Positions 14,338 to 64,000 are shown, counted from the stretch's first letter. The stretch is DNA of 64,000 bases from Erysipelotrichales bacterium (GCA_022508525.1 JAFLVA010000007.1:18380-82379); one strand, 5' to 3'. Notes: generated by a model from the sequence alone, not told the origin. Numbers and translations are program-made.

Positions 14338-14349
14338 GTGGTGAGATTT

Positions 14350-15642: not shown

Positions 15643-15687
15643 AGAAGTTTTTGAAAATGCGCATATATTAATATTGGTGATTAATAA

Positions 15688-16239
15688 GTGCGCTTTTCTT
15701 CTGATAAAAAAAGACAAAAAGATGCCAAAAAAGCATTTAAGAATATCTACAAGAAATTGGGTAATATAGAATCAGAAATTGCGTCTGAATATTTATCTTG
15801 GCTTGATAAAAAAACGAGTTATTTTAAAGATTCGGTAAATAAAACTGGCTATAATACTCAGCCTGATAATTTGGGTCGCGGGGATATTGTATGGGTGGAA
15901 TTTGGTATCAATGTTGGAACAGAGTTATCAGATTATAACACTCGTGGACACTACGCACTTGTTTGGGCAGTAGATTTAGGAAATATTGTTGTTATTCCTT
16001 TGTCAAGTAGAGATGCAATTGGAAGTAACTTGACATTTGATATTGGAATAATTCCCGAATTAAATGATGAAGATAAAGAACAACATTCTTATCTTAAATT
16101 AGACGCCATAAGATCAATATCAAAAAGAAGAATTGCTAGAATGACGGGAAGAGAAAACGGAAAGATATCGCTTAGTAAAGAAAATATAAAGCTAGTAGAA
16201 AAGGCTATAAAAGTTGCTTTTTTAAGTCCTGAAGAATAA
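15688..16239 (+). CDS. PemK/MazF-fold protein with ~60-aa N-terminal extension
   Basis: The core RGDIVWVEFGINVGTELSDYNTRGHYALVW...VVIPLSS...LKLDAIRSISKRRI matches the MazF/PemK pattern (RGDI-x-V-x-F-x4-G-x-E...RP-x-LV...P-x-TS...Q-x-R-x-I-x4-R). There is no in-frame ATG near the start. GTG at 15688 follows GGTGA. Confidence 0.65.
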   Translation: MRFSSDKKRQKDAKKAFKNIYKKLGNIESEIASEYLSWLDKKTSYFKDSVNKTGYNTQPDNLGRGDIVWVEFGINVGTELSDYNTRGHYALVWAVDLGNIVVIPLSSRDAIGSNLTFDIGIIPELNDEDKEQHSYLKLDAIRSISKRRIARMTGRENGKISLSKENIKLVEKAIKVAFLSPEE

Positions 16240-16250
16240 TTGTTTTAGAT

Positions 16251-16279
16251 AGTCTACGTTAATTTGCGTAGGCTTTTTA
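16251..16279 (+). terminator. Intrinsic terminator
   Basis: Stem AGTCTACG / CGTAGGCT followed by T5. Confidence 0.65.
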
Positions 16280-16297
16280 AGTTATGCTTAAATAATG

Positions 16298-16326
16298 TTG
16301 ACAAATAGGCGCTAAAACTCTATATT
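16298..16326 (+). promoter_or_regulatory. Sigma-A type promoter for tRNA-Thr
   Basis: TTGACA (16298-16303), 17-nt spacer, TATATT (16321-16326). The tRNA starts 13 nt downstream. Confidence 0.6.
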
Positions 16327-16338
16327 ATTAGCAGTAGT

Positions 16339-16412
16339 GCCTCCTTAGTTAAGTGGTATAACAGATCCATGGTAAGGATCCATTGCTAGTTCGATTCTGG
16401 CAGGAGGCACCA
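16339..16412 (+). tRNA. tRNA-Thr (GGT)
   Basis: Acceptor GCCTCCT/AGGAGGC, anticodon stem GATCC/GGATC, loop ATGGTAA, T-loop TTCGATT, encoded CCA. Confidence 0.88.
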
Positions 16413-16430
16413 TTAAATTTGTAATAGAAA

Positions 16431-16458
16431 AAGTGGAGATTATAACCCACTTTTTTTA
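16431..16458 (+). terminator. Intrinsic terminator after tRNA-Thr
   Basis: Stem AAGTGG / CCACTT followed by T7. Confidence 0.7.
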
Positions 16459-16601
16459 ATACTTAGTTAGTACTATCTATTATTCTATTTTTATTTAGAT
16501 ATGGAATTGCAATCATCAATATTCTTATAATATTTTTAATGATTGTAAATTTAATCATAAATTCTTGTTTATGAAAAATACAAATAAAGGAGAGATCATT
16601 T

Positions 16602-18293
16602 ATGAAAGAAAAAAAGCCTTATTTTATTCACACTAAAGTATATTACTTTATTACAGAACTATTTGTAGGTATTGCTTTAATGGGAGTAGAGATGTCTGCA
16701 TCAAGATTAATATCTACCTACTTTTCTTCAAGCCAAGTAGTTTGGACATTAATTATTGGTGTAATTATGATTGCTATGGCGATTGGAAACTATTGGGGAG
16801 GAAGACAGGCGGATAAGAAGCCTTCCTATACAAGACTATATTTAGAATTGTTATTTGCGGGTGCCTACATTGCCTTAATTCCATTTTTCGGTCGTTTTGT
16901 CATTGCCGGGGTTTCAGCATTATTTGCACTTATTGTTACAAGTAATTTGGTCATTTGGGCGAGCTTAGTGTCTTGCTTAATATTATTTGTACCACCATTA
17001 TTGTTTTTAGGAAAAGTTACACCATCACTTGTTAAATACTCAATGGGAGAAAAGGTCTCTGGTAAAGTTATTGGGAGTTTGGAAGCTTTAAACACAATTG
17101 GCTCAATAGTTGGAACATTTTTACCAACTTTTCTAACTATTCCTTTTATTGGAACAAGTAATTCGTTTGTGTTATTTGGTTCAATGATAAGTGCTTTAGG
17201 TTTGATATATATAATAACTGAATTAATTGAAAAAAATAGTAAAAGAAAAATATCTAACGATGAAAATTTAGAAGAAAACGTCAAAATAAAAAAGTATGAA
17301 TTTAAAGTCACAATTTTATCCGCTGTTTATAGTGCTTTACTAATTATTGGTATTGTTTTATCGTCTAATGCATCATTTATTTTTTGGAATGACGAAACAT
17401 TAATAAAAGAAGATGAATCCATTTATAATTATTTAAAAGTCGATAAAATTGGAAATCAATATTCGTTTTCTACAAATGTATTATTTGGAATTCAATCTGC
17501 AATCAATGAGGATGATTCTTTGACAGATATGTATTATGACTATTTGCTAGTAAGCCCATTTTTGGTGAAAGAAAATCCAAATATTTTAATTCTAGGAAAT
17601 GGAACAGGAACTTACGCTACGTTGATGAAAAATTATCTTCAAGTAGAATGTGAAATAACTGCGGTAGAAATCGATCAAAAAATCATAGATCTCTCATATG
17701 AATATTTCCATATGAGTGATGATATCAATGTAGTTTGTGATGATGGTAGAAACTATCTCACGAGATCCAAAGATAAATATGACATTGTTTTAGTAGATGC
17801 GTATTCTTCAATTTCGGCGCCATTTCAAATGACAACTGTAGAATTCTTTACTCTTGTTAAAAATCATCTCAACGATGATGGAATAATGATGATGAATATT
17901 AATATGGTATCCGAGGCCAAAGATTCAATTAATGTAGCTTTATGTGATACAGCCTATTCTGTTTTTGATAATCTATATACATTTAAAGTTCCAAACGGCA
18001 GTGGGATGGAAGTCTTTTCTTCAAAAAATAACGATGTTAATTTATTAGAACGAATACAAAATATAGATGCATCTGATTACGAATATGCCTTAGAATTAAA
18101 GTTCAATCAAATGAAACGTGGTCTTAAAGAATACAAAGATACAGGAATACGTTTATATGATGATACTTGTGATGTTGAGATTAGAAGTATTAGAGCATTA
18201 GATAATATCATTAATGCTGAACTAGAATATTATCGTAGAATCTTTAAAGAAAAAGGCATTCGAGGTTTAATGGAAGAGTTATTTAGAAGTTAA
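16602..18293 (+). CDS. Membrane-fused spermidine-synthase-like protein (multi-TM N-domain plus class I methyltransferase-fold C-domain)
   Basis: The N-terminal ~260 aa has about 7 hydrophobic helices. The C-terminal domain carries ILILGNGTGTYA, VEIDQKIIDLSYEYF and DIVLVDAYSS, resembling the spermidine synthase fold. Confidence 0.65.
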   Translation: MKEKKPYFIHTKVYYFITELFVGIALMGVEMSASRLISTYFSSSQVVWTLIIGVIMIAMAIGNYWGGRQADKKPSYTRLYLELLFAGAYIALIPFFGRFVIAGVSALFALIVTSNLVIWASLVSCLILFVPPLLFLGKVTPSLVKYSMGEKVSGKVIGSLEALNTIGSIVGTFLPTFLTIPFIGTSNSFVLFGSMISALGLIYIITELIEKNSKRKISNDENLEENVKIKKYEFKVTILSAVYSALLIIGIVLSSNASFIFWNDETLIKEDESIYNYLKVDKIGNQYSFSTNVLFGIQSAINEDDSLTDMYYDYLLVSPFLVKENPNILILGNGTGTYATLMKNYLQVECEITAVEIDQKIIDLSYEYFHMSDDINVVCDDGRNYLTRSKDKYDIVLVDAYSSISAPFQMTTVEFFTLVKNHLNDDGIMMMNINMVSEAKDSINVALCDTAYSVFDNLYTFKVPNGSGMEVFSSKNNDVNLLERIQNIDASDYEYALELKFNQMKRGLKEYKDTGIRLYDDTCDVEIRSIRALDNIINAELEYYRRIFKEKGIRGLMEELFRS

Positions 18294-38402: not shown

Positions 38403-39147
38403 AAAGGGACAATTTGCATACTATACCGACATTGGTAAAGAACGTGATACCAATGAAGATGTTGCTATTGTCTTAAAGAATAAAAGTAATGATATTTTGA
38501 TGATTGTCTGTGACGGAATGGGAGGCTACACAAAAGGCGATGTAGCAGCTCAAATCGCTCTAAATACTTTGAAAGAAGACTTTGAAAAATATGATAGATT
38601 TTTAAATTCTTTAGAAGTAAGACGTTTTTTAATACGCAATATTAAAAGAGCAAACCAAAAGATTTATAAACTTGCTCATGAGAATAACCTATCAAGCAAG
38701 ATGGGAACAACAATAACTGCTGCGGTAATTCGCAAAAATAGACTCATCGTAGTAAGTATTGGCGATTCTCGTGGCTATATTGTAGAAGACGATATAATAC
38801 GCATAACAGATGATGATTCTTATGTAAATTATCTTTATCGCATGAACAGAATTAGTTTTGAAGAAATGGATACTCATCCGAAAAGACATATTTTAATGAG
38901 TGCTTTAGGATTGACTCCAAATATAAACTTTGATGTTTCATTTTATCGCCATGATAAGAGTCGTGTGTTTATTTGCACAGACGGATTATATACGATGGTA
39001 AGTGAAGAAAAAATGTATAAAATTTTGACTTTGGATAAATCGACAGAAGAAAAATGCCAATTGTTAATTGAAGCCGCAAATGAAAATGGTGGCAAAGATA
39101 ACATTAGCTTGGCATTATGGGAGGTAAATAATCATGAACATAAATGA
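38392..39147 (+). CDS. prpC: PP2C-family Ser/Thr phosphatase
   Basis: NEDVAIV, CDGMGG, SIGDSRGY, CTDGL, GGKDNIS. The ATG at 38392 overlaps the rlmN end. Confidence 0.88.
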   Translation: MKTKKGQFAYYTDIGKERDTNEDVAIVLKNKSNDILMIVCDGMGGYTKGDVAAQIALNTLKEDFEKYDRFLNSLEVRRFLIRNIKRANQKIYKLAHENNLSSKMGTTITAAVIRKNRLIVVSIGDSRGYIVEDDIIRITDDDSYVNYLYRMNRISFEEMDTHPKRHILMSALGLTPNINFDVSFYRHDKSRVFICTDGLYTMVSEEKMYKILTLDKSTEEKCQLLIEAANENGGKDNISLALWEVNNHEHK

Positions 39148-40018
39148 AGTAATAGATGATCGTTATAGAATTGAAAGAAAACTTGGAGAAGGCGGCATGT
39201 CAATTGTCTATGAGGCAACGGATATTATTAGCAAGAAACAAGTGGCAATAAAAATTATTAAAGGCGATATGATGTCTAATGCCACAAATTTATCTCGCTT
39301 TGAACGTGAAGCAAGAGCAGCGGCGTCTTTAAGTCATCCAAATATTGTACGTGTTGTAAGTTTAGGTACTTATGAAGGTCGTCCTTATATGGCAAACGAA
39401 TATGTTAACGGAAAAAATCTTCGCGATGTCTTGGATACAAGAAGTCATTTTACACCGCTTGAAGCATGCGATATTATGTTTCAATTAAGCTCGGCAGTTA
39501 TACATTCTCATGAGCATGGTGTTATTCATCGTGACATTAAGCCACAAAATGTCTATTTAACTGCTGATGGAACAATTAAACTTGGAGATTTTGGTATTGC
39601 TACATTTGAAAATTCCGCTCGTTTGACAAGAAGTGAAACAATTATTGGATCGGCACATTACTTAGCGCCAGAAATATCAAAAGGACAACAGGCCTCTTTT
39701 GCAAGTGATGTATACTCACTTGGTGTAACATTTTTTGAATTAGTTACTGGTAAAGTCCCATTTGATGCAGATACTCCAGTAGGAGTTGCAATTAAACATA
39801 TTAAAGATAAATTTCCGTCACCAAGAAAAATAATTCCTTCAACACCAACAGAAATTGAAAGAATTATTTTAAAGGCTACACGAAAAAATCCTTTGGAAAG
39901 ATATAAAAGTGTTCTTGAAATGCGAAAAGACATCGAACGTATTTTAAGAAATCCAGAAATTATTAAAGAAAAACATTCGTTCTTCTATCGACTATTCCAT
40001 AGAAAAGGCAAAAAATAA
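39134..40018 (+). CDS. prkC: Hanks-type Ser/Thr protein kinase, kinase domain only
   Basis: GEGGMSIVY, AIK, HRDIKPQN, DFGIA, APE. 294 aa with no TM segment or PASTA repeats. Confidence 0.88.
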   Translation: MNINEVIDDRYRIERKLGEGGMSIVYEATDIISKKQVAIKIIKGDMMSNATNLSRFEREARAAASLSHPNIVRVVSLGTYEGRPYMANEYVNGKNLRDVLDTRSHFTPLEACDIMFQLSSAVIHSHEHGVIHRDIKPQNVYLTADGTIKLGDFGIATFENSARLTRSETIIGSAHYLAPEISKGQQASFASDVYSLGVTFFELVTGKVPFDADTPVGVAIKHIKDKFPSPRKIIPSTPTEIERIILKATRKNPLERYKSVLEMRKDIERILRNPEIIKEKHSFFYRLFHRKGKK

Positions 40019-43225: not shown

Positions 43226-43672
43226 CTAAATTTTAACTTTTGGAAATTGAATCAAAACTGACTCACGATCTTTTAATTTTTTGCATCTTTTAAGCATCTC
43301 ATCTAGTAAAACTTGTTTCTTGTCTAAGACAAGATATATGGCGTCTCCGCGATCGGTGACAAAAAGTAAAATTTTATTTTTTCTTGACCAAGCCTCATCA
43401 ATATAGATGATTCTGTTATATTCATATATATATTCTTTGGTTAATTTTTTTTGAGATAAATATTTCTTTTCTAATGTGTAATAACTCAATTTTAAAGTAA
43501 TGAAAAAATATATAGCTGTAATGATAGCCCAACCGGCGATGGCAATGTAGGCTTGTGGAAGTAGAGGCCATTTGAATCTGCCATCAAAAGTAAAATAAAA
43601 CAAAAGCAATATTAGTAATGAGACACCAAAAAACCATAAAAGAGTTTTTGTCTTGCTTGGATATATTTTCAT
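43226..43672 (-). CDS. Membrane protein with bacterial PH-like (YdbS/DUF304-type) topology
   Basis: Two N-terminal TM helices followed by a ~80-aa soluble domain. The start is ATG 43672 or 43681. Confidence 0.5.
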   Translation of the reverse strand: MKIYPSKTKTLLWFFGVSLLILLLFYFTFDGRFKWPLLPQAYIAIAGWAIITAIYFFITLKLSYYTLEKKYLSQKKLTKEYIYEYNRIIYIDEAWSRKNKILLFVTDRGDAIYLVLDKKQVLLDEMLKRCKKLKDRESVLIQFPKVKI

Positions 43673-43749
43673 AATAATCACCTAAAAAATATTATAACAT
43701 AATCTTAAATATCACTCAAAAAAAATAAGCAAAAAATCCCTTGAAATGT

Positions 43750-43770
43750 TTTGTAAATTATATTTACAAA
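43750..43770. promoter_or_regulatory. Perfect palindrome, candidate operator
   Basis: TTTGTAAAT-TAT-ATTTACAAA (9-bp arms, 3-nt spacer). Confidence 0.5.
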
Positions 43771-43792
43771 GCGTTTTTGAATATGCTAAAAT
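43763..43792 (+). promoter_or_regulatory. Candidate extended -10 promoter of the SMC-like operon
   Basis: TTTACA (43763-43768), 18-nt spacer ending in TGC, TAAAAT (43787-43792). RBS AGGAGG lies at 43805-43810. Confidence 0.5.
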
Positions 43793-43817: not shown

Positions 43818-45260
43818 ATGCGTTTATTTGATGTAATTCCGAGTAACTTTTTCTCAATCCTATCTTCTAAAAACAAAGAAGTTTACGCGATGACTTTAAG
43901 CGTTCTCTATAAAAGTTTAGAAACTGAAGAGATGTCTATTAAAAAAGCGGATTTTTTGCGTGTGTTAAAAGAAACCGCTACAGATCTAGTAATGAGTCTT
44001 GATTTAAATGATGAAGACGCTGATGATGATGCTTTAAATAATCCTACGCTTCCAAGTAAAGTGGCCTTTATTTTAAGAAGGTTAGAAGAAACAGGTTGGA
44101 TTGATATACAAATTGATAACGAGACTTTTGAAGAAAATATTATTCTTCCATCGTATTCAATAAAAGTTTTAGCAACTTTAAAAGAAATAAGTGCTGAACA
44201 AGAAGCAGCTTATAATTCTTTGGTTCATTCTACATATAGTGAATTGAAACTTGAAGATGATGAGCCAGATGATTTAATGTATGTTACCTTGCTTCGTGCT
44301 TATGAAAATACAAAAAAGTTGAGAATTGAATTAGTCACTCTAGGACATCAAATAAAGATTTACCAACATCGTTTATCAAATTTATTTACAACTAATGATG
44401 TATTGGCTAATCACTTTGATGATTATAAAGTAAGAATATCAGATAGACTTTATCATCCTTTGAAAACTTTCGATTCCGTCACTCGTTTTAAAAGGCCAAT
44501 TATGGCAATTTTACAGAAGTGGCTTCGTGATGATAAGATTCGTTCAATGTTAGTAGAACAATCTTTGCTTTGGCGAAAAGATCGTGATCATAGCAATGCT
44601 GAAGCTGATTTAATCAATAAAATCAACTTCATTCAAGATATGTATGAACAGTTGAATACAATGATTAATGAAATTGACCAAAGCCATAGTGAATATACAA
44701 AATCCAGTGCATCGAAAATTATTTATTTCAACAATAACGACAAGACTATTAAAGGTCATTTAGAAACAATTTTTAAAGCTTATGCGAAGGCTAATGCTGA
44801 TATGAATGCTGGTAAAGGCTATAAGGATTTAAGATACATTTTATCTTCAATGCAAGAGTCTCTTTTATTCCATGAACAAGGATATATCGATCCAGATTCT
44901 ATAACGCTTCCAATTGTTAGACAATATCGTGAGATTGGTGAGCCATTACCGATTGTTAATAACTTTGAAGAAGCTGGCGATTTAATCATGCAAAACTTCC
45001 TTGATCAAACTCGAAACATCTTTACTGATGCTCGTGTAATGGAATTTATGGAAAGAGCTTTTGGAGATTCTAACATATTAGATGTTGAAGAGATTCCACT
45101 TCTTGATTATGATGCCTTCATCTTATTGATTCTTGCAACTTTGAAACGTAATGATGAAGATTGTTTCTATGAAGTCGATTATGACAATAATGAACACATT
45201 ATATCCCAAGGATATGTTTTACCTAAACTTGTATTTAAACGAAAGGAGAAAGCACAATAA
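43818..45260 (+). CDS. Putative kleisin-like subunit (MukF/MksF/JetA position) of an SMC-like complex
   Basis: 480 aa starting at the ATG after AGGAGG (the track ORF starts earlier, at 43746). The stop overlaps the next start (TAATG). The size and first position match MksF/JetA. I recognise no sequence motif, so the call is contextual. Confidence 0.5.
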   Translation: MRLFDVIPSNFFSILSSKNKEVYAMTLSVLYKSLETEEMSIKKADFLRVLKETATDLVMSLDLNDEDADDDALNNPTLPSKVAFILRRLEETGWIDIQIDNETFEENIILPSYSIKVLATLKEISAEQEAAYNSLVHSTYSELKLEDDEPDDLMYVTLLRAYENTKKLRIELVTLGHQIKIYQHRLSNLFTTNDVLANHFDDYKVRISDRLYHPLKTFDSVTRFKRPIMAILQKWLRDDKIRSMLVEQSLLWRKDRDHSNAEADLINKINFIQDMYEQLNTMINEIDQSHSEYTKSSASKIIYFNNNDKTIKGHLETIFKAYAKANADMNAGKGYKDLRYILSSMQESLLFHEQGYIDPDSITLPIVRQYREIGEPLPIVNNFEEAGDLIMQNFLDQTRNIFTDARVMEFMERAFGDSNILDVEEIPLLDYDAFILLILATLKRNDEDCFYEVDYDNNEHIISQGYVLPKLVFKRKEKAQ

Positions 45261-45889
45261 TGTTTGAAACAGAATTTGAAAAACTTACTAATGCTGAGCA
45301 AAACGAATTTGCAAGAGTTGTTAATACTCTAATGCTTCGTTCCTTTATCGTTAGAGATGTTTTTGATAGTAAAGAAAAAGCTATGAGAATCAATAGTGAC
45401 TATCGTTTTATTGAACGTCACTTTGATTTAATTAATGACTATTTAAAATACACTAATTGGATTATGGAAAAAGATGTATTAAATGGAGTTGTCGCTCTAT
45501 TTAATATGAATGAACAAAACAGATTAAGAATTGACCGTGAGACTTCACTTTTACTCTTCGTTTTAAGATTAATTTATGAAACAGAGAAAAATGAATCTAG
45601 CCAAACAGGTGAATCAATCTATATCACAACCCCAACACTTATTAAGACAATGATTGATCATGGTATAACGATGGCTGGTAAAAGAATGAGTGGAAGACTC
45701 TTTGCTAAGTCCTTAAGATTTTTAGCTAATCATAATATTATCGCCAAAGTTAGTGGTTCCTATGATGAGGGTAACGTAGCCTTCTATATTTTACCAAGTA
45801 TTATCTTTGCAGTTGATAATCAAAAGATTAAGGCAATGTCTGAGGCTTTGGAACAAATGAAAGTAGGTGGCGAAGATGAAGACGCTTAG
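45260..45889 (+). CDS. Putative KITE subunit (MukE/MksE/JetB, DUF4194-like)
   Basis: 209 aa, a size compatible with two winged-helix domains. The pattern FIERHFDLINDYLKYTNWIMEKDVLNGVVALFN resembles DUF4194 as I recall it. It is translationally coupled on both sides. Confidence 0.55.
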   Translation: MFETEFEKLTNAEQNEFARVVNTLMLRSFIVRDVFDSKEKAMRINSDYRFIERHFDLINDYLKYTNWIMEKDVLNGVVALFNMNEQNRLRIDRETSLLLFVLRLIYETEKNESSQTGESIYITTPTLIKTMIDHGITMAGKRMSGRLFAKSLRFLANHNIIAKVSGSYDEGNVAFYILPSIIFAVDNQKIKAMSEALEQMKVGGEDEDA

Positions 45890-48800
45890 AAAAATAAAAA
45901 TTATTAACTGGCACTATTTCTGGAATGAAACAATTAATATTGAACCAATTGTTTTCTTAACTGGTTTAAATGCTTCGGGTAAATCTACATTAATTGATGC
46001 TATGCAAATTGTTTTGCTTGGTGATACATCTGGTAGATTCTTTAATAAAGCGGCTAGTGAAAAGTCATCTCGTACCTTAAAGGGATATTTACGTGGTGAA
46101 TTAGGGGATTCCGAAGATGGTGGTTTCAAATATCTTCGTGAAGGAAGATTTACCTCCTATATTGCTTTAGAATTCTATGATGATTTAAACGATAAATCAT
46201 TTACTTTAGGATGTGTTTTTGACTCATACGATGATGGCTCAGAAGAACATCGTTATTTCTGTTTAGAAAATAAAATTCCTGAAAATGAATTTATTAAAGA
46301 TAAAATCCCAATGGATTATAAGACTTTGGCACAATTTTTTGCTGCTAACTATGGCGAAGGAAATTATCGCTTCGTTGATACTAATAAACAATATCAAGAA
46401 TTACTTAAAAAGAAATTCGGAAATATTAAAGATAAATATTTCTCACTTTTCAAAAAAGCTGTCTCATTTACTCCAATCACCGATATTACAACATTTATTA
46501 CAGAATATATTTGTGATGCACAAGGTAATATTAACATCGATTCTATGCAAGAGAATATCTTGCAATATAAGCGCTTAGAAAATGAAGCCACAATTATGGG
46601 AATGCGTGTTGATCGCTTAGTAGAAATTGAGACTTCATATAAAGCTTATCAATCAAATTATCACAATATGAGCATCTATGGCTATATTGTTGAAAAGGCT
46701 GAACTCCAAATTGAATTAAATCGTTTGAAGTCATATGATGATTCTATTGAAAAGGCCCAAAAGAGATTAATTGAAATTGAAACAGAACTAGCAGATATAG
46801 ATGTTAATATCGCGGAGTTAAATAGAAGAAAAACACGTCTTATTCAAGATAAAGCAAGTAGTGATACATATCGCTTAACTGATGAATTACGCGAACAAAG
46901 ACAAGAAGCATTGGAAAAACTTGCGAGTTTGAACCGTGATGCTCAACTTGTTAGACAAAATTTAGAAAAATATGCGAATGATTTTATCGCAGTGGCTTCG
47001 CACATCGTTGAAAAGTTATCTAACTTAGATCAAACATTATTAAATGATGATCGCGGTTACGAATTTAATGAATTATTAGAGTGTGCTGCTAAGGTTGTTG
47101 AAACATCTACTAATTTGCGTGATAACGAATTACCACATATTGAAACTCTTTCTATTGAAACTTTAAAAGAATGGAGAGATTCACTTGCAAAATTTAAACA
47201 ACTAGTGTCCGCAATGAGTGTTTCATTAGGTAGAACAATAACAACTTTTGATCGTGAAACTGCTCAACTTAAACAACAAGAAGCAGAAATGCGCAATGGT
47301 AGTAAATCATATGATAGAAGTTTGATAACAATTAAGAATGAACTTCAAAGAATTCTTACTGAACGTCATGGAAAACCAGTTGTTGTATCTTTATTTGCTG
47401 ATTTAATTGATATTAAATCGCAAACTTGGGTCAATGCAATTGAAGGATTCTTACATGCACAAAAATTTAATCTTTTTGTAGAGAATAAATATTATTTTGA
47501 AGCATATGAGATTTTACGTGATCTACTTGCTAAGAATCATTTTTATGGCACAACACTTGTTGACCAAGAAAAAATTATTGAAAGAAATTATACATGCGAA
47601 AAAGGATCACTTGCTGAAGAAATTATTACTGATCATGAAGGTGCAAGAAGTTACACTAACTTCTTAATTGGAAGATTGAAAAAATGTCGCAATGTTCAAG
47701 AAGCTCGCGAGTCAATGAATGGTATCACTCCAGAATGTGATTTATATCGTAACTTTACCTTAGGTAAACTAAATCCTCGCTTATATAATCCAGCCTATAT
47801 TGGAAGAAGTGTTGGCGAAGCACAAATCGCCTTAAAACATGCTGAAATTGATCGTAATAATCATTTAGTAGCGATTTTAAGAAATATTCATAAAGATATT
47901 GCTGAGGCAAATACTTTTGAAATTATTAATACAAACGAAATTAATAATACAATTACATTAATTGAAAACACTCGTAATGTCGAAGGCTTGAAAAACACTA
48001 TTTCTTATTTAGATGAAGAATTATCTAAACATGATGTATCTCAAATTGAATCATTTGATCGTCGAATTAAAGACGTTGAAGAAGATATAAAGAATTTAGA
48101 GAACGAAAAACAAGCCCTATTTGAAGAAAGAGGACAACTCAATACACAAATTAAGACTTTAAAAGAAGAAAAGATTCCAGAAACTAAACTAAAGAGTGAA
48201 GAAAGAACTAAACACTTAGAAGAAAATTATGATCCATTTGTCGTGGCAGAAGAATCAGAACCACTCTTTAATCAAATGTTAGTTGAAGGTAAGAGTCCTA
48301 TTGAGATGGTTAGTGAATACAATGTTAAATTCACTCAAGCTCAATACAAAGCTCAAACAATATTTAACAATGTAATGAAGTTACGCCGTGAATATGTTAA
48401 AGACTATCGTTTATCCTATGATACAGATCAAAAGGATAATGATGCTTACGAAAAAGAATTGATTGATCTTCGTGAGATTAAACTTCCACAATATCAACTT
48501 GCAATTACTGATGCTTATAATAAAGCGACTAAACAATTTAAGGATGATTTCATTTCTCGTTTGAGAAGTGCAATTGAAAGCGTTGAAATTCAAATTGAAG
48601 ATTTAAACGAAGCATTATCGCATGCAGTATTTGGAAATGATACTTATCGTTTCACATGTCGTCCAAGTCAACTTTATCATCGTTACTACGAAATGATAAA
48701 AGATGATTTGTTACTTCAAGTTGGTGAAGATGAATCAGCATTTATTGAAAAATATTCTGAAGTTATGAATGATTTGTTTAGACAAATTGTTGATGTTGGA

Positions 48801-49280
48801 GAGCATGGAGATAAAAATGCACAATTAGCAGCTAATGTTGAGAAATTCACAGACTATCGTTCATATCTTGATTTTGACTTAATCGTTAAAAATAAAGAAG
48901 GACAAGAACAACGTCTTTCAAAAATGATGAAGAAAAAATCTGGTGGTGAAACGCAAACTCCATTCTATATTGCAGTTTTAGCCAGCTTTGCTCAACTATA
49001 TCGTGTCAATGATGCAGGAGAACTCGGTAATTCCATTCGTCTTATTGTCTTTGATGAAGCTTTCTCAAAGATGGATAGAGGTAGAATTACTGAATCTGTA
49101 CGATTACTTAGAAAGTTTGGCTTACAAGCTATTCTTTCAGCGCCATCTGATAAGATTGCCGATATTTCGGAACTTGTCGATGAAACTTTAGTTGTCTTGC
49201 ATGATAAGAATACATCACGTGTACGTTTATACGCTGAAGAAGAAAAAATTACAAATAAAAAAGCAATTGGCCAGCATTAG
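45876..49280 (+). CDS. SMC-like ABC ATPase (MukB/MksB/JetC-like)
   Basis: N-terminal head has INWHYFWNE...FLTGLNASGKSTLIDA (Walker A). An ~800-aa charged, heptad-rich middle suggests a coiled coil with hinge. C-terminal head has KKKSGGETQTPFYIAVLASF (signature) and IRLIVFDEAFSKMD (Walker B and D-loop). The ATG at 45876 follows AGGTGG and overlaps the previous gene by 14 nt. Confidence 0.8.
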   Translation: MKTLRKIKIINWHYFWNETINIEPIVFLTGLNASGKSTLIDAMQIVLLGDTSGRFFNKAASEKSSRTLKGYLRGELGDSEDGGFKYLREGRFTSYIALEFYDDLNDKSFTLGCVFDSYDDGSEEHRYFCLENKIPENEFIKDKIPMDYKTLAQFFAANYGEGNYRFVDTNKQYQELLKKKFGNIKDKYFSLFKKAVSFTPITDITTFITEYICDAQGNINIDSMQENILQYKRLENEATIMGMRVDRLVEIETSYKAYQSNYHNMSIYGYIVEKAELQIELNRLKSYDDSIEKAQKRLIEIETELADIDVNIAELNRRKTRLIQDKASSDTYRLTDELREQRQEALEKLASLNRDAQLVRQNLEKYANDFIAVASHIVEKLSNLDQTLLNDDRGYEFNELLECAAKVVETSTNLRDNELPHIETLSIETLKEWRDSLAKFKQLVSAMSVSLGRTITTFDRETAQLKQQEAEMRNGSKSYDRSLITIKNELQRILTERHGKPVVVSLFADLIDIKSQTWVNAIEGFLHAQKFNLFVENKYYFEAYEILRDLLAKNHFYGTTLVDQEKIIERNYTCEKGSLAEEIITDHEGARSYTNFLIGRLKKCRNVQEARESMNGITPECDLYRNFTLGKLNPRLYNPAYIGRSVGEAQIALKHAEIDRNNHLVAILRNIHKDIAEANTFEIINTNEINNTITLIENTRNVEGLKNTISYLDEELSKHDVSQIESFDRRIKDVEEDIKNLENEKQALFEERGQLNTQIKTLKEEKIPETKLKSEERTKHLEENYDPFVVAEESEPLFNQMLVEGKSPIEMVSEYNVKFTQAQYKAQTIFNNVMKLRREYVKDYRLSYDTDQKDNDAYEKELIDLREIKLPQYQLAITDAYNKATKQFKDDFISRLRSAIESVEIQIEDLNEALSHAVFGNDTYRFTCRPSQLYHRYYEMIKDDLLLQVGEDESAFIEKYSEVMNDLFRQIVDVGEHGDKNAQLAANVEKFTDYRSYLDFDLIVKNKEGQEQRLSKMMKKKSGGETQTPFYIAVLASFAQLYRVNDAGELGNSIRLIVFDEAFSKMDRGRITESVRLLRKFGLQAILSAPSDKIADISELVDETLVVLHDKNTSRVRLYAEEEKITNKKAIGQH

Positions 49281-49308
49281 TCTGGTCTTTTGTATCATAT
49301 GAGGAATT

Positions 49309-50211
49309 ATGGAACTAAGTTATGCAAGTAAAAAAATTAGAAATCAAAAGCGTCTGAATATCTTCAGAATGGTTTTGGTTGTGTTTGTATGTATTTTCAT
49401 AGTTCTATTACTGAACGCTATATTTTATCTAATTATAGACCCGATATTTGGCATAATTACAAACGATATTGGAATAATTATCTCAATACTTATAAGTCTA
49501 TTATTAGTTATCATCTTATCACTTTTAAATTTGACGATTGCATACAATTTACTTAATCGAAAGTATAAAAAGTTTTATATGGATTTGCTAAAAAATGAAG
49601 CAATGCTTGATGGTTTAGCCCTCTTTAAAAATGAAAATGGTTTAAATGATGTTGAAAAAGAGACGATTGAAAAATATGTTGGTATTGAAGTTGTGGACGT
49701 TTTAAATGCGATGTCACAGACTAGTAGCTCGGCATATTTTGATTTGTATCAGATAAAATATGATAGTAAAAACTATGGCGTAGTAATTAAAACAAAAATT
49801 GATTATATGAATAATGAATTAGTTATTGTGCGCAACGATGGAAGAAAAGGTAAATTGTCGTATGAAGAAAAAAATCTAAAGCAATATGGAATTGGAATAT
49901 CTAATAATGAGTTGTATTTTGGAAATACGTTTGCATTATATGCAACATTAGATAATCGCATTTATAAGTTAATTAACAATCAAATTCTCGATGAATTACA
50001 AAAATTTGCGACTTTTGTTAAGACATCACTTTGCTTAACTCTTTTAGACGACAATCTGTTTATATTTATTGATAATTGGAAATTTGATTTAGAGAAATCT
50101 ATGTTTAATAAAGATGGCATTTCTATTATAGATACACAGATAGAGGCATTAAAAATATTACAAAATTACATCGAAAGTATGACTTTATTGTTAAACAAAA
50201 TAGATGAGTAA
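49309..50211 (+). CDS. Two-TM membrane protein, DUF3137-like C-terminal domain
   Basis: Hydrophobic helices lie at aa ~20-45 and ~50-80. The soluble C-terminal domain carries YFGNTFALYATLDNRIYKLINNQILDELQKF, resembling DUF3137 (recollection). It starts 28 nt after the SMC-like gene with no strong terminator between them. Confidence 0.5.
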   Translation: MELSYASKKIRNQKRLNIFRMVLVVFVCIFIVLLLNAIFYLIIDPIFGIITNDIGIIISILISLLLVIILSLLNLTIAYNLLNRKYKKFYMDLLKNEAMLDGLALFKNENGLNDVEKETIEKYVGIEVVDVLNAMSQTSSSAYFDLYQIKYDSKNYGVVIKTKIDYMNNELVIVRNDGRKGKLSYEEKNLKQYGIGISNNELYFGNTFALYATLDNRIYKLINNQILDELQKFATFVKTSLCLTLLDDNLFIFIDNWKFDLEKSMFNKDGISIIDTQIEALKILQNYIESMTLLLNKIDE

Positions 50212-50263
50212 TTATTGATGAAGTTGTTGGCAATAATATTATCAAAAAGCGTTTTTGAAAAAA

Positions 50264-59003: not shown

Positions 59004-59470
59004 ATTTATTGCTTTTTTAATAAATATTTCAGCTTTTGGAAATATGAACTTATTATATTTGATTAGAGGCTATATAGTTATCAATATGTATTGCAAATAT
59101 GAGAAAATGAGTATTGATAACATGAAAAAAGATAACCATAGCAATGATGGATATGATAATAAATTAGTAATTGACATACTTATTAATAGCAACCAATTTA
59201 ACTTAAAAAGTTATGGCATTTGTGCGTATTTTATTGAAATAAACATTTTCAAATTTTAGTGTGAAAAGCGACTAAATATCTATCATCAAATGAAGATGAA
59301 TTGTTTGATAGTTGGTCTAGTAATGGTAATAAATACTATAATGAAGTAATTGCGTAGCATATGACATAATTAAAATTTTCTAATAATACAATTTGAAGTA
59401 AGCAATTGATCTATGATAATTTAAATGAATATGACTTAGAGGATGCTAGTGGCTAAAGCTAAATATTTAA

Positions 59471-59499
59471 TTGAAATCAAGTATAATGTAAAGTATAAT
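59471..59499 (+). promoter_or_regulatory. Sigma-A type promoter of the LRR lipoprotein gene
   Basis: TTGAAA (59471-59476), 17-nt spacer, TATAAT (59494-59499). A second TATAAT lies at 59482-59487. Confidence 0.5.
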
Positions 59500-59502
59500 T
59501 TT

Positions 59503-59519
59503 ATTGAAATAATTTCAAT
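59503..59519. promoter_or_regulatory. Palindrome just downstream of the -10 box, candidate operator
   Basis: ATTGAAAT-A-ATTTCAAT (8-bp arms). A third ATTGAAAT copy at 59470-59477 overlaps the -35 box. Confidence 0.4.
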
Positions 59520-59571
59520 AAAACTTTTATTGTACAAACTCAATTTTTTGATTGGTATCGGAGGATTTATT

Positions 59572-62500
59572 ATGAAAAGAAAAAATAAAAATTTTACAAA
59601 GCCACTTATTATGTTTTTAATTACTGGTTTTGTAACGACTCTTGCGGCAAGCTGTGCGCCAAAAAAATCAAATTCTATTGATATAAGTGATTTGATAAGT
59701 GGCGATGGAAATTCGTCAAATAATGGCTCAAATGATTCGACAACAACACCGCCTAGTTCAGAAGATATCCCACCTATTGAAGAAGAAGGGGAGTTAAAAT
59801 ATACAATCGTAAATAATAACGGAAATAAATATGTCGAAGTTTCAGAAGGCACAAATGTTCAATCTATTACTGAAATAGAAGTGCCATCAAGAATAGAGAT
59901 TAAAGGAGCAATGTATGAGGTTAAAAGTATCAAAGCAGGTACATTTGCTAATTACACTTCGTTAAGAAAAATAACATTACCATTTTTAGGAACAACGAAT
60001 ACTACATCTGGAACTTTATATTCACTGTTTGGTACTTCCGTAAATAATATTCCTGTTACACTCAAAGAGGTAGTAATCAAAGGTGGAACAACATTAGGAT
60101 CATCTGCTTTTAAGGATTGTGCAAATTTAACAAGCATTACGATTGCTAATACTTTTGAAGAAATCAAAAAAGGCGCATTTAAGGGATGTAGTTCTTTGGA
60201 AAGTATAGAACTTCCATTTGTAGGCGCAAGAAAAGATGGAACAAAACCAAGTGATGATGGTTCTTATGGAATGGGAACCACTTATGATAAATTTGGTTGG
60301 ATATTTGGCTTTGGATCAGTTGCTGAGCAAAACAATATTTCAAATCAAAGACAATATATTCCGGCTAATTTAGAAAAAGTAACAATCAATGGTGGAACAA
60401 AAATTGTAAATAATGCCTTTGCATATTCTGATATTTTCGCAATTACTATCAAGGCATCAGTAGGTTCAATAGAATGGAATGCTTTTGATTCAACGACAAG
60501 TATTATATATTTTGAAAATTCAAATAGTTCTCTTTTTAGTGGTACATATAATAGCGCAACTGCAGTTTATTTTGGTGTCAATGAAAATACATCTAAAGAA
60601 ATAGATAATATGCGATTTGTGATTAGAAATGGTAAAGCGATATTAGCAGAAAATTTAAAAGATGAAAGAACTAAGTTTATACCAGATACAATAGATATCT
60701 CTAATACAAATTATGAAGTCGAAGAAATAGGCAAATATGCATTTAAAAATCATACAAATTTACAAACTATTGAATTACCAAATCATTTGAGAATAATTAA
60801 TCATAGTGCATTTTATGGATGCACATCTTTAGAAAATGTAACACTTCTAGATAATGTCATAGAGATTGGAGAAAAAGCATTTTATAACTGTACTTCACTT
60901 ACATCAATAAGGATACCTGATTCAGTATCTACAATAGGCAGTTCTGCATTTGAAAATTGTAGAAAGTTAAGTAGTGTCAGCATTCCGTCAAAATTAACAG
61001 TGATTTCTGAACGTCTTTTCTCTAATTGTGAAAAAATTGAGAAAATTGAAATACCTTATGGAGTACAGACTATTGGAGATTATGCTTTTGAAAATTGTCG
61101 TTCTCTTAAAACTATTTTAATTCCAAATACTGTTACTAGTATTGGACGTTCAGCATTTTATGGATGTTCATCATTAGCTTCAGTTTCAATTCCAAGTTCT
61201 GTTACTACAATTGGAACAAGAGCGTTTGAAGCATGTGGTGTGTTAACAATATATGCTGAAGTAACATCAAAACCAGCTGGCTGGTTCTACGATTATGGTG
61301 GCAGTTGGAATCAAGATAATCGACCAGTAGTATGGGGAATCAAAGAGATTGATGGGATTTTATATCGTTTATCAGGTAGTACTGCAACCATAATTGGAAT
61401 GCTTGATACGAGCGAGCAAATTATAATACCTTCTATCGTTTATTCAGAAGGTAAATCCTACTCTGTTACAAGTATTGATAAAGGAGCATTAAGTGAAGCA
61501 AAAGATGTGACAAGTTTAACACTTCCGTTTGCTCCAACATATTTAGGACTTTTATTTGGAGCATCATCGGCAAGTCAAAATAGTACATATGTTCCAAATT
61601 CATTAAAAGAAGTAACAATTTCAGGAGGAAGTGAAATTCGTTCTGAAGCGTTTATTAACTGTACTTCAATAGAAAAAATTACTCTTTCTAGCACAATAAC
61701 AAGCATTGGAGCACAAGCGTTTTATAACTGTAAATCTTTAGAGAGTTTTATTGTGCCTCAAAATGTAACAAGTATTGGAAATGGTGCATTCCAAAATTGT
61801 AGTAAATTAAAAGAAATTACATTGCCATTTGTAGGAGGTTCATCTAGTTCAACTACAAATTCATTCTTTAGTTATATATTTGGAGCATACTCATCTGCAC
61901 AAAGTAATAATTATTTACCTATTGCATTAAAGAAAGTTACAATAACAAAACAAACAGTAATTCCAGATGGCGCATTTGAATCATGTAGCAATATTGAAGA
62001 AATTATTTTGCCATATTCAACAACGAAGATTGGTAATCGTGCATTTAAAAATTGTACATCACTTACAAATTTTGTGATTCCTAGTAGTGTAACATCAATT
62101 GGGCAAGAAGCATTTGTTGGCTGCGTTGCTTTATCAGATATTAATGTTTCAAATAAGACAGAAGAAGTCGGTAAAGATGCTTTCGACGAAAATATGGATT
62201 TTGCTGAATATGGAAATAGTTTATATATTGGAACATCGACTAATCCATATTATGTTTTAGTCAAAGCTAAAAATACTGATGTAGAAGAAATCACTATACA
62301 TCAAAATACAAAAGTAATTGCGGATGAAGCATTTGTAAATTGTATGAACCTCACTTCAATTACAATACCATCATCTGTGACAAACATTGGGAAAAATGTA
62401 TTTAAAGGTTGCAATTCTTTATCATCTTTAACATTATCAAATATGAATAATCCATTGAACTATTATTTTGGTTCAAAAGAATTTATTCCTTCATCGTTAA

Positions 62501-64000
62501 AACAAGTAACGATAAATGGAGGAACAGCAATTGTAGAAAGAGCATTTGAAGGATGTAGCGATATAGTTACAATTAATCTTCCAAGCACATTAAAAACTAT
62601 TGGTGCTTCAGCTTTTAGTGGTTGCAGTTCATTAAATACTATTACAATTCCTAGTACTGTAACTACAATAGGTTCAAATGCATTTAAAGATTGTGTTGCA
62701 TTAGAAGAAGTTGTTTTACCAAATTCATTGACAACAATTGAAAATGGTATTTTAAGTGGTTGCACTGCATTAAGAAAATTAACATTACCAAATTCATTTG
62801 AATACTTAGGCAAAGTATTCGGTGCGACAAGTTATACGCAAAATTCTTCGTATGTACCAAGTAGTTTAAAAGAGGTAATTGTTACAGGTGGAACAAGTAT
62901 TGAAAACTACGCATTCTATGGATGTGGTTCATTAACTTCAATCATACTTTCAAATGGCATTAAAACAATAGGTGCATCAGCATTTAATGGATGTAATAGC
63001 TTAGCAAGTTTAACGATTCCAGGAACTGTCACAAGCATTGGAAGTAATGCATTTAAAAATTGTAGTTCGCTAAAATTGATTACAATTCCTAGTGATGTTA
63101 AAACAATGGGTAGTTCAGTATTTAAAGGATGTACTCAATTGTTTATATATTGCGAAGCTGAAAGTAAACCAAGTAGATGGGATGAGACTTGGAATCCAGA
63201 CAACCGCCCAGCTTTCTGGGGACAATCTGAAAAAGATGTTATAGTTATTGATAATATTAGATACACAATAATTGATGGAAAAGCGATTGTAACAGGATAT
63301 GTTGGAGAAATTGTGAACTTGACTATCCCACAATTTATAACCGATTCTAATGGTACAAATTATGAAGTTGTATCAATTGGAAGTCGCGCTTTCCAAGGAT
63401 GTAATTCATTAAAGTCAGTTACAATTACTGCTTCAATTTATGAAATTGGAGATGGAGCATTTTATAATTGTAATCAAATTGAAGAAATGACATTACCAAT
63501 TATTCCTGAATATTTAGGAAAATTATTTGGTGCAGATAGCTATGCTCAAAATAGCATATTTGTGCCAAGTAGTTTAAAAAATTTAAATTTTATAGGTGGA
63601 GATAATATAGCAGCACATGCATTTGAAGGATGTAGTTCTTTAGAAACAATAATTCTACCATATAGCTTAAGTTCAATCGGAGAAAGTGCTTTTGCCTCTT
63701 GTGAATCACTACGTACACTTAACATTCCTACTTATGTAATGAGTATTGGAAATGGAGCATTTAAAGATTGTAAATCATTAGAAAAAGTTGTAATTCCTGA
63801 TTCCGTAATGGTTATTGGCGAAGAACTATTCTATGGTTGTAGTGCATTAACTTTAGTTATAGTACCTAATTCAGTAATGAGTATAGAAGCAAGAGCATTT
63901 GAGGGATGTGAATCACTTTCCAATATACGTATTCCATCTTCAGTTATGACAATAGGAGAAAGTGCATTTAAATGGTGTACAAGTTTAGAAGCAATTACAC
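59572..64000 (+). CDS. Giant surface lipoprotein built from BspA-type leucine-rich repeats (3' end outside window)
   Basis: This ORF is missing from the supplied track because it has no stop in the window. My hand translation of frame 1 from the ATG at 59572 (RBS GGAGG) to nt 64000 is open for 1476 codons. Lipobox LAASC. About 23-aa LRR_5-type repeats (xAFxxCxSLxSIxIPxSVTxIG) occur throughout. Confidence 0.85.
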   Translation, partial: MKRKNKNFTKPLIMFLITGFVTTLAASCAPKKSNSIDISDLISGDGNSSNNGSNDSTTTPPSSEDIPPIEEEGELKYTIVNNNGNKYVEVSEGTNVQSITEIEVPSRIEIKGAMYEVKSIKAGTFANYTSLRKITLPFLGTTNTTSGTLYSLFGTSVNNIPVTLKEVVIKGGTTLGSSAFKDCANLTSITIANTFEEIKKGAFKGCSSLESIELPFVGARKDGTKPSDDGSYGMGTTYDKFGWIFGFGSVAEQNNISNQRQYIPANLEKVTINGGTKIVNNAFAYSDIFAITIKASVGSIEWNAFDSTTSIIYFENSNSSLFSGTYNSATAVYFGVNENTSKEIDNMRFVIRNGKAILAENLKDERTKFIPDTIDISNTNYEVEEIGKYAFKNHTNLQTIELPNHLRIINHSAFYGCTSLENVTLLDNVIEIGEKAFYNCTSLTSIRIPDSVSTIGSSAFENCRKLSSVSIPSKLTVISERLFSNCEKIEKIEIPYGVQTIGDYAFENCRSLKTILIPNTVTSIGRSAFYGCSSLASVSIPSSVTTIGTRAFEACGVLTIYAEVTSKPAGWFYDYGGSWNQDNRPVVWGIKEIDGILYRLSGSTATIIGMLDTSEQIIIPSIVYSEGKSYSVTSIDKGALSEAKDVTSLTLPFAPTYLGLLFGASSASQNSTYVPNSLKEVTISGGSEIRSEAFINCTSIEKITLSSTITSIGAQAFYNCKSLESFIVPQNVTSIGNGAFQNCSKLKEITLPFVGGSSSSTTNSFFSYIFGAYSSAQSNNYLPIALKKVTITKQTVIPDGAFESCSNIEEIILPYSTTKIGNRAFKNCTSLTNFVIPSSVTSIGQEAFVGCVALSDINVSNKTEEVGKDAFDENMDFAEYGNSLYIGTSTNPYYVLVKAKNTDVEEITIHQNTKVIADEAFVNCMNLTSITIPSSVTNIGKNVFKGCNSLSSLTLSNMNNPLNYYFGSKEFIPSSLKQVTINGGTAIVERAFEGCSDIVTINLPSTLKTIGASAFSGCSSLNTITIPSTVTTIGSNAFKDCVALEEVVLPNSLTTIENGILSGCTALRKLTLPNSFEYLGKVFGATSYTQNSSYVPSSLKEVIVTGGTSIENYAFYGCGSLTSIILSNGIKTIGASAFNGCNSLASLTIPGTVTSIGSNAFKNCSSLKLITIPSDVKTMGSSVFKGCTQLFIYCEAESKPSRWDETWNPDNRPAFWGQSEKDVIVIDNIRYTIIDGKAIVTGYVGEIVNLTIPQFITDSNGTNYEVVSIGSRAFQGCNSLKSVTITASIYEIGDGAFYNCNQIEEMTLPIIPEYLGKLFGADSYAQNSIFVPSSLKNLNFIGGDNIAAHAFEGCSSLETIILPYSLSSIGESAFASCESLRTLNIPTYVMSIGNGAFKDCKSLEKVVIPDSVMVIGEELFYGCSALTLVIVPNSVMSIEARAFEGCESLSNIRIPSSVMTIGESAFKWCTSLEAIT

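Follow-up and report, generated by a model that had tools for sequence, protein, structure and literature searches.

A nuclease-less type I Wadjet operon inherited vertically in uncultured Bacilli: probably a plasmid-defence machine turned chromosome organiser

The closest known relative of the operon described here is type I Wadjet, JetABCD, represented by E. coli GF4-3 (PDB 8AS8/8BFN/8Q72) and by JetABC of P. aeruginosa PA14 (8DK1-3); reconstituted JetABC loads onto DNA and extrudes loops with ATP (10.1101/2023.11.03.565488; PMC10889018). The MksBEFG/EptABCD systems of Corynebacterium glutamicum and Mycobacterium smegmatis belong to the same complex family, share its gene order, include the MksG/EptD nuclease, and restrict plasmids (PMC10123090). 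P. aeruginosa MksBEF is presented in PMC10586767 (which cites Petrushenko 2011 and Lioy 2020) as a nuclease-less Muk-like condensin that acts on the chromosome and is thought to be the product of nuclease loss from a Wadjet-like ancestor. Gamma-proteobacterial MukBEF, a lineage-wide, vertically inherited complex of an SMC protein (structural maintenance of chromosomes) with kleisin and KITE subunits, is likewise a proposed descendant of a Wadjet-like system. The SMC field has proposed that both MukBEF and MksBEF arose from a Wadjet defence complex after loss of its nuclease, but a clear intermediate is lacking. Here we describe a three-gene operon, jetABC, found in 64,000 nucleotides of DNA from Erysipelotrichales bacterium (GCA_022508525.1 JAFLVA010000007.1:18380-82379; this whole stretch is referred to as the window), which encodes type I Wadjet proteins and no JetD Toprim nuclease. 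On balance, we favour the view that jetABC is an ancient, vertically inherited Wadjet derivative that lost its nuclease and acts as an MksBEF-like condensin.

The three genes are arranged in the order, and with the translational coupling, of type I Wadjet:

43818-45260, plus strand: jetA, kleisin subunit, 480 aa; the open reading frame (ORF) is also open from 43746
45260-45889, plus strand: jetB, KITE subunit, 209 aa
45876-49280, plus strand: jetC, SMC-type ATPase, 1134 aa from the ATG at 45876

A first-pass annotation, made from the sequence of the window, had proposed three coupled ORFs of these sizes, and their coordinates and junctions were confirmed. The genes are co-directional; the jetA stop and jetB start overlap as TAATG (45258-45262), jetB and jetC overlap by 14 nt (45876-45889), and jetC ends at a TAG codon (49278-49280). 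An AGGAGG ribosome-binding site lies just 5' of the jetA ATG at 43818 and AGGTGG just 5' of the jetC ATG at 45876, whilst an alternative in-frame jetC start, GTG at 45867, would yield 1137 aa.

For comparison, one JetC scan of species-representative genomes gave 79 distinct loci, comprising 75 from uncultured Bacilli (JetC identity 49-95%) and four from Clostridia (~40%), which were used as an outgroup. Since loci found through JetC cannot reveal relatives without jetABC, we also sampled relatives via rpe, which added three jetABC loci (L080-L082), bringing the Bacilli total to 78, and three loci without the operon (L083-L085), considered below.

All three proteins match type I Wadjet families. 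JetA aligns to Pfam PF18982 JetA (DUF5716) at 1.7e-92, over profile positions 2-434 of 434, and to PADLOC JetA1 (PDLC00449) at 9.6e-127; JetB matches PF13835 (DUF4194/JetB) at 1.4e-15 and JetB1 (PDLC00502) at 9.3e-69; JetC matches JetC1 (PDLC00519) over its full length with E = 0 and 1139.9 bits, with Pfam matches to AAA_29 and SbcC_Walker_B. The JetA, JetB and JetC proteins of the outgroup find their best matches in the same PADLOC sub-models (PDLC00449, PDLC00502 and PDLC00519), and the window module therefore falls in a subfamily whose ordinary members carry JetD. These Pfam and PADLOC profiles bear out the earlier assignment to a MukFEB/MksFEB/JetABC-type operon, but not the accompanying view that the first two subunits lack any recognisable signature and are strongly diverged. 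A diverged new family was rejected on the full-length matches to the JetA1, JetB1 and JetC1 models: jetABC is a bona fide, canonical type I Wadjet JetA1/JetB1/JetC1 sensor and motor module.

The assignment of JetA as a kleisin and JetB as a KITE protein, also expected from the first-pass annotation, is based on family profiles. Searches of PDB sequences with the JetA and JetB profiles returned zero matches, because the solved JetA and JetB structures belong to other subfamilies, and a single-sequence AlphaFold2 (AF2) model of JetB had a mean predicted local distance difference test score (pLDDT) of 45.7, too low to use. Unlike MukBEF, the operon proteins have no Pfam match to MukF or MukE at E <= 1, and JetC reaches MukB_N only borderline (23.4 bits against a cut-off of 23), over residues 8-68, which comprise the P-loop region alone. 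JetC scores 16.9 bits against SMC_N, below the cut-off of 40, and no operon protein has a sequence match to the Pfam families SMC_hinge, ScpA or ScpB.

JetC carries the motifs GLNASGKST (Walker A), SGGETQ (signature) and LIVFDEAFSKMD, as had been read from the sequence, and the core residues of Walker A, the signature and the Walker B/D-loop are 100% conserved in ~75 JetC orthologs. In the JetC alignment, conservation reaches at least 97% in 253 of 1137 columns, among them all catalytic motifs and the hinge. A JetC profile recovered E. coli JetC (8as8) among PDB sequences at 2e-13, along with MukB heads. In an AF2 model built from a 51-sequence alignment (pLDDT 79.5), the ATPase head is split, the antiparallel coiled coil is long and interrupted by breaks, and residues ~475-645 form a globular hinge, a domain that is structurally matched to canonical SMC hinges; this is the architecture of type I Wadjet JetC. 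When the model was searched with Foldseek, JetC (types I and II) and MukB chains came first, followed by Smc5/6 and condensin; Rad50 appeared at rank 22 or lower, and RecN and SbcC were not among the 50 matches listed. PADLOC, the PDB profile search and Foldseek thus all group the ATPase with JetC and MukB, as the first-pass annotation had it, and not with RecN or SbcC. A repair ATPase of the RecN/SbcC/Rad50 kind was rejected on these best matches and on the kleisin and KITE genes that adjoin jetC. The 1134-aa JetC has a 100% identical public counterpart, P0001, named simply 'AAA family ATPase'.

We then turn to JetD, a Toprim/aCAP nuclease of the families JetD_C (PF09983), DUF3322 and DUF2399, whose absence distinguishes the operon from type I Wadjet and from the MksG/EptD-bearing systems. 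The area covered was the 64-kb window and, in the 78 Bacilli loci, up to 10 kb of flank or as far as the contig end. Searches by tblastn with the four Clostridia JetDs found none in the window or in the ~1.5 Mb of loci, and a JetD hidden Markov model (HMM), run against all ORFs and six-frame fragments of the window and against the 75 JetC-derived Bacilli loci, had no match; L080-L082 have no JetD in their gene calls and Pfam tables. Both methods recovered JetD in all four Clostridia loci, which served as positive control. There (L073, L074, L075 and L077), a 413-422-aa gene lies immediately 3' of jetC; those of L073, L074 and L077 match PADLOC JetD1 at ~1e-123, that of L073 also matches Pfam JetD_C, and L075 is 71% identical to L073 by tblastn. 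No JetD fragment was found in the 28-bp spacer between jetC and the following gene, of the DUF3137 family, or elsewhere in the window. A PADLOC scan of all window ORFs gave no information on JetD, its output being dominated by generic families of kinases and ABC ATPases. The earlier statement that no nuclease gene lies nearby therefore holds, by tblastn and the JetD HMM, for the whole window.

A second difference from JetD-bearing relatives lies in JetB. In four of four JetD-bearing outgroup loci, JetB ends in an acidic C-terminal tail with the motif VIRG(D/E), which occurs in none of 73 JetBs of the JetD-less clade, that of the window included. The outgroup JetBs carrying the motif are:

L073, 4073-4723: JetB with VIRG(D/E) tail
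L074, 8869-9534: JetB with VIRG(D/E) tail
L075 and L077: JetB with VIRG(D/E) tail

This tail may be a JetD-related peptide that was lost together with the nuclease. Because the nearest relatives keep JetD, we infer a single loss of JetD, in the ancestor of the JetD-less Bacilli clade.

In this clade the operon occupies a fixed site, running rlmN-stp-prkC-rsgA-rpe…rpmB, a transmembrane (TM) gene, jetABC and then glgCDA-leuS. All 75 JetC-derived Bacilli loci, from different uncultured species, have jetABC without jetD at this common site. The upstream synteny (priA…rlmN-stp-prkC-rsgA-rpe…TM) is kept in at least 40 loci, and in ~72 Bacilli loci with downstream sequence jetC is followed by glgC-glgD-glgA-leuS and/or a DUF3137-like gene; in some, a 285-326-aa membrane protein is encoded between jetC and glgC-glgD-glgA. 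By contrast, the four jetABCD outgroup loci have no genes in common besides jetABCD, and behave like mobile islands. When the JetC tree is rooted on the JetD-bearing loci, those without JetD group as a single clade, with locus GC contents from 0.23 to 0.54. Pairwise identity of JetC is correlated with that of rlmN, rpe, prkC and stp (r = 0.62-0.79; Mantel tests, run for rlmN and rpe, both p = 0.001), at least as tightly as core-gene pairs are among themselves (r = 0.41-0.69 for the three tested), and mean JetC identity (0.56) is inside the core-gene range of 0.45-0.65. Core proteins differ by up to ~50% across the clade.

The operon is also intact and constrained. The JetC ORF is full length in 79 of 79 JetC-derived loci. 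Ratios of nonsynonymous to synonymous substitution rates (dN/dS), calculated by the Nei-Gojobori method for eight close pairs, five of them with unsaturated dS (0.1-0.76), are 0.01-0.03 for JetA, ~0.00-0.04 for JetB and 0.01-0.04 for JetC, as compared to 0.01-0.14 for flanking genes. In the outgroup, dS is saturated for JetA, JetC and JetD, and the JetB ratio of 0.05, at dS 2.6, is too saturated to be used. Taken together, jetABC is old and vertically inherited, and purifying selection acts on it at least as strongly as on neighbouring housekeeping genes; in both its fixed core-genome site and its housekeeping-like rates the operon differs from type I Wadjet, which sits in variable islands.

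A role in chromosome organisation or segregation is supported indirectly, by this vertical inheritance and housekeeping-level constraint. Under the condensin reading, a JetA2-JetB4-JetC4 complex would still load onto DNA and extrude loops driven by ATP, as JetABC does. Without a nuclease, the JetABC of this clade would be unable to cut DNA, and plasmid cleavage by JetABC in the absence of JetD is implausible; the host would have retained the complex for a task that needs no nuclease, chromosome folding and segregation being the likeliest. It would probably be an auxiliary condensin rather than the sole one, given that in some related lineages the site is empty. As functional analogue we propose P. 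aeruginosa MksBEF, whose three-gene kleisin-KITE-SMC operon likewise lacks MksG/JetD, and the option of a nuclease-less MksBEF-type condensin, raised in the first-pass annotation, is the one that the comparative evidence favours. The likeness to P. aeruginosa MksBEF is by description only: that system has experimental evidence behind it and the clade operon is known from sequence alone, the sequence of the clade operon still plainly shows its type I Wadjet ancestry, and MksBEF is described as scattered by horizontal gene transfer, whilst the clade operon has descended vertically throughout a deep clade of Bacilli. With MukBEF the operon shares gene order and lineage-wide vertical inheritance, and MukB chains are among the top structural matches of JetC; MukBEF, however, took the place of Smc-ScpAB and normal growth requires it, whereas the clade operon has empty-site relatives.

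Several observations weigh against the condensin reading. Three relatives found via rpe, L083, L084 and L085, have the same synteny with the site empty of jetABC:

L083, 12158-12261: empty site
L084, 12102-12169: empty site
L085 (GCA_024408095.1), 12074-12187: empty site

At these sites the TM gene (minus strand) is followed directly by glgCDA-leuS, or by leuS alone in L085, and neither jet remnants nor a DUF3137 gene were found there, whilst L080-L082, sampled in the same way, carry jetABC without jetD at the common site with a 301-aa gene 3' of jetC. The operon is therefore dispensable in some backgrounds, and is not essential throughout the wider lineage. A long-retained 'core' defence function would, moreover, also be compatible with strong purifying selection and vertical descent. 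For the window's own pairs dS is near saturation, although the ratios are no different in the five pairs whose dS is 0.1-0.76. Finally, all genomes are metagenome-assembled genomes (MAGs), and several are clearly mislabelled bins.

A neighbour-joining tree of four flanking genes supports the major groups at 99-100% bootstrap, with a poorly supported backbone: the empty-site group joins the window and L004 groups at 49%, and an Onthovivens-like group at 22%. Its mean distance to the window's group is 0.416, compared with 0.409 for the L004 group and 0.46-0.47 for other JetABC-bearing groups. By distances only, this suggests that the empty-site group nests inside the JetABC-bearing radiation, and secondary loss of jetABC in this group is more likely than its never having been acquired.

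Labels in the clade were inconsistent. NCBI names its members Erysipelotrichales, Bacilli or 'Mollicutes', and they include Coprobacillus sp. CAG:826 and Candidatus Onthovivens; the clade, gut-type and uncultured, is probably RFN20-type. The records of L031, L032, L036, L037, L051, L054 and L069 are titled Slackia, Parabacteroides, Phocaeicola, Bacteroidaceae, Lachnospiraceae and Acutalibacteraceae, and contain a Bacilli-type jetABC locus at 26-29% GC; many other clade records are labelled 'uncultured Staphylococcaceae'. The oddly titled records are probably mis-binned or mislabelled MAGs, and taxon labels are unreliable for this clade.

Amongst the alternatives, the strongest, to which we give perhaps a quarter of our belief, is that JetABC still defends against plasmids or episomes, sensing small circular DNA by complete loop extrusion and either neutralising it without a nuclease (by entrapment, silencing or interference with replication, as has been proposed for Smc5/6) or handing it to an effector whose gene lies at another place, for example a remote JetD/MksG or a nuclease of another kind, an option that the first-pass annotation also named. 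The clade proteins are assigned to the PADLOC type I sub-models that also capture JetD-bearing systems, so that sensing is presumably intact, and occasional clean absence, as in L083-L085, is typical of accessory functions. Passive, non-cleaving restriction has also been discussed for Smc5/6 (PMC10586767; 10.1101/2022.10.04.510915). Several findings stand against a defence role: JetD is absent within ~10 kb (or to the contig end) in 78 loci and throughout the 64-kb window; the locus lacks the island-like turnover seen in the JetD-bearing outgroup; jetABC evolves at housekeeping rates, with dN/dS at or below that of its flanks; and in JetB, the tail motif found together with JetD has been lost from all 73 clade members. 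To our knowledge, known Wadjet and Mks systems also keep their nuclease in the operon.

It is improbable, if conceivable, that nuclease-less JetABC became the main condensin of this small-genome Bacilli clade or replaced Smc-ScpAB in it. No further SMC-like ORF was found in the window, in the 79 JetC-derived loci or in the gene and Pfam tables of L080-L085, a sample of one region per genome; rnc, ftsY, SMC and ParB motifs were likewise absent from the 79 loci, and the supplements of RFN20/Bacilli genome surveys have no smc, scpA or scpB entries. The chance that jetABC is the sole condensin is lowered by the empty-site relatives. Were it true, this would be a second, independent replacement of the MukBEF kind, in Firmicutes and with Wadjet ancestry still readable, and the jetABC-less L083-L085 would be lineages that kept Smc-ScpAB.

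A further possibility concerns the gene that occupies the position of jetD in the window:

49309-50211, plus strand: DUF3137-family protein with two TM segments, 300 aa; Pfam DUF3137 at 2e-08; begins 28 bp after jetC

That this protein took over from JetD as an effector acting at the membrane, so that the locus would be a new Wadjet variant of four genes, seems very unlikely to us. In its favour, a DUF3137-like homolog follows jetC in the window and in ~20 of the 75 JetC-derived loci, distributed over two deep subclades (distant homology, with hhalign probability 82%, E = 1e-5); L080-L082 have a gene of the same size in this position, with a weak DUF3137 match in L081 and L082 only; and such a gene never occurs at the empty sites. 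SLATT domains are predicted membrane effectors in conflict systems, and the N-terminal two-TM region of the window protein resembles NCBIfam SLATT_1, but at E = 0.012 and 15.6 bits (cut-off 41) this is sub-threshold and may be a generic TM resemblance. The protein has zero PADLOC matches. Its gene is absent in ~55 of the 78 JetABC loci, where jetABC is equally constrained; with dN/dS of 0.06-0.09, it evolves 2-4 times faster than jetABC; and a terminator-like hairpin separates it from jetC. The DUF3137 protein is thus probably an occasional neighbour and not an obligate fourth subunit.

That jetABC is a decaying, pseudogenised remnant of a standard jetABCD operon after recent deletion of jetD, as the jetD directly 3' of jetC in the nearest relatives outside the clade might suggest, has next to no probability left: synteny, monophyly, co-divergence, intactness and selection together rule it out, the 79 JetC ORFs being full length with invariant motifs, dN/dS being ~0.00-0.04, and JetD being missing from 78 of 78 loci across a clade of that depth, with no fragment of it found, an outcome under which the first-pass annotation stands.

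If jetABC is indeed a condensin of Wadjet origin, the clade looks like a preserved transition, in which the proteins are still those of type I Wadjet, the nuclease is gone and the operon has become core-gene-like, and a plasmid-defence machine has probably turned chromosome organiser. Nuclease-bearing and empty-site relatives are both at hand for comparison. This opens the questions of which changes accompany the passage from JET nuclease to condensin (the JetB tail being an example), whether JetABC alone can organise a chromosome, and whether it coexists with Smc-ScpAB or replaces it. In the literature we found no report of a JetD-less jetABC operon in this Bacilli clade; defence-system finders that need all four genes miss such loci, and the public annotation of JetC says no more than 'AAA family ATPase'.

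Candidate control elements flank the operon on both sides:

43751-43769, plus strand: perfect 8-3-8 palindrome, TTGTAAAT-TAT-ATTTACAA, overlapping the -35 element of the jetA promoter
43763-43792, plus strand: sigma-70-like promoter of jetA, TTTACA-18 nt-TAAAAT with an extended -10 TG; a consensus match only
49269-49287, plus strand: weak terminator-like hairpin at the jetC stop; a pattern match only

The putative promoter agrees with the consensus at 10 of 12 positions, and its -35 element and TGnTAAAAT are kept in close relatives. Across the whole window the palindrome has a single exact match. All eight loci in the subgroup of the window carry it once, 5' of jetA, and it is missing from every other locus. 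In the remaining subgroups, palindromes of other sequence stand 30-70 bp upstream of jetA; no palindrome is seen at the corresponding place in the JetD-bearing outgroup. The palindrome may be an operator, with the reservation that palindromes are common in AT-rich DNA. The hairpin has a 6-bp stem with four GC pairs, followed by TTTTGTAT.

Profile matches to the neighbouring genes agree with the earlier description of an operon embedded among core genes. Upstream lie rqcH (minus strand), gmk, priA, rlmN, stp, a kinase-only prkC, rsgA and rpe. They are followed by an ORF of 202 aa that takes the position of thiN and has no significant profile match, and by a 61-aa ORF in the rpmB position (minus strand), which has no NCBIfam match but whose ortholog in L080-L085 is Pfam Ribosomal_L28. 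The order rqcH(-)-gmk-priA-rlmN-stp-prkC-rsgA-rpe-thiN-rpmB(-) is that of B. subtilis, which we take to be the classic Firmicute arrangement. Membrane ORFs lie on either side of the rpmB-position ORF, between the thiN-position ORF and jetABC, and one of them forms the conserved left edge of the site:

43226-43681, minus strand: membrane protein, 151 aa

By tblastn, 36 of the 79 JetC-derived loci have a homolog of this gene; the gene itself has no Pfam match and a dN/dS of 0.04-0.10. Since a 148-154-aa gene occupies the same position in L080-L085, the three empty-site loci included, it is probably not part of the jetABC system. Downstream of jetC, the DUF3137 gene is followed by a class-I glutamine amidotransferase (GATase; minus strand), asd, dapF (assigned by eye and position only) and an aminotransferase. 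GC content is flat at 0.30-0.31 across the jetABC region, the nearest tRNA is 27 kb away (all 11 tRNAs lie between positions 4.6 and 16.4 kb in the window), and no integrase is present among the annotated flanking genes. The absence of a compositional shift and of a flanking tRNA had been noted before; on these three grounds, a mobile island was rejected.

Other features of the window were recorded in passing. The PrkC/Stk1-type Ser/Thr kinase (39134-40018, plus strand) is only 294 aa long and consists of a kinase domain without TM or PASTA regions; similarly short, kinase-only prkC genes (289-295 aa) are present in L080-L085. The window lacks glgC-glgD-glgA: only 52 bp (50212-50263) separate the DUF3137 and GATase genes, between which the closest relatives, L001 (95% JetC identity; 14347-17995) and L002 (90%), carry glgC-glgD-glgA, which points to a clean, recent glg deletion in the window. 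The ORF at 15688-16239 (plus strand), just 5' of tRNA-Thr (16339-16412), encodes a PemK/MazF-like toxin domain (6.6e-12) that is extended at its N-terminus by ~60 basic residues' worth of sequence, a basic stretch, and has no obvious antitoxin gene adjoining it. Paralogous multi-pass membrane proteins of 432 and 357 aa, closely alike in their N-terminal regions, are encoded at 1393-2691 and 10582-11655 (plus strand), the former within a pot-like transporter cluster. At the far end, a giant ORF of at least 1519 aa (59443-64000, plus strand, running off the end of the window) contains BspA-type leucine-rich repeats (Pfam LRR_5 at 9e-227, in 10 stretches) and probably encodes a surface or adhesion protein.

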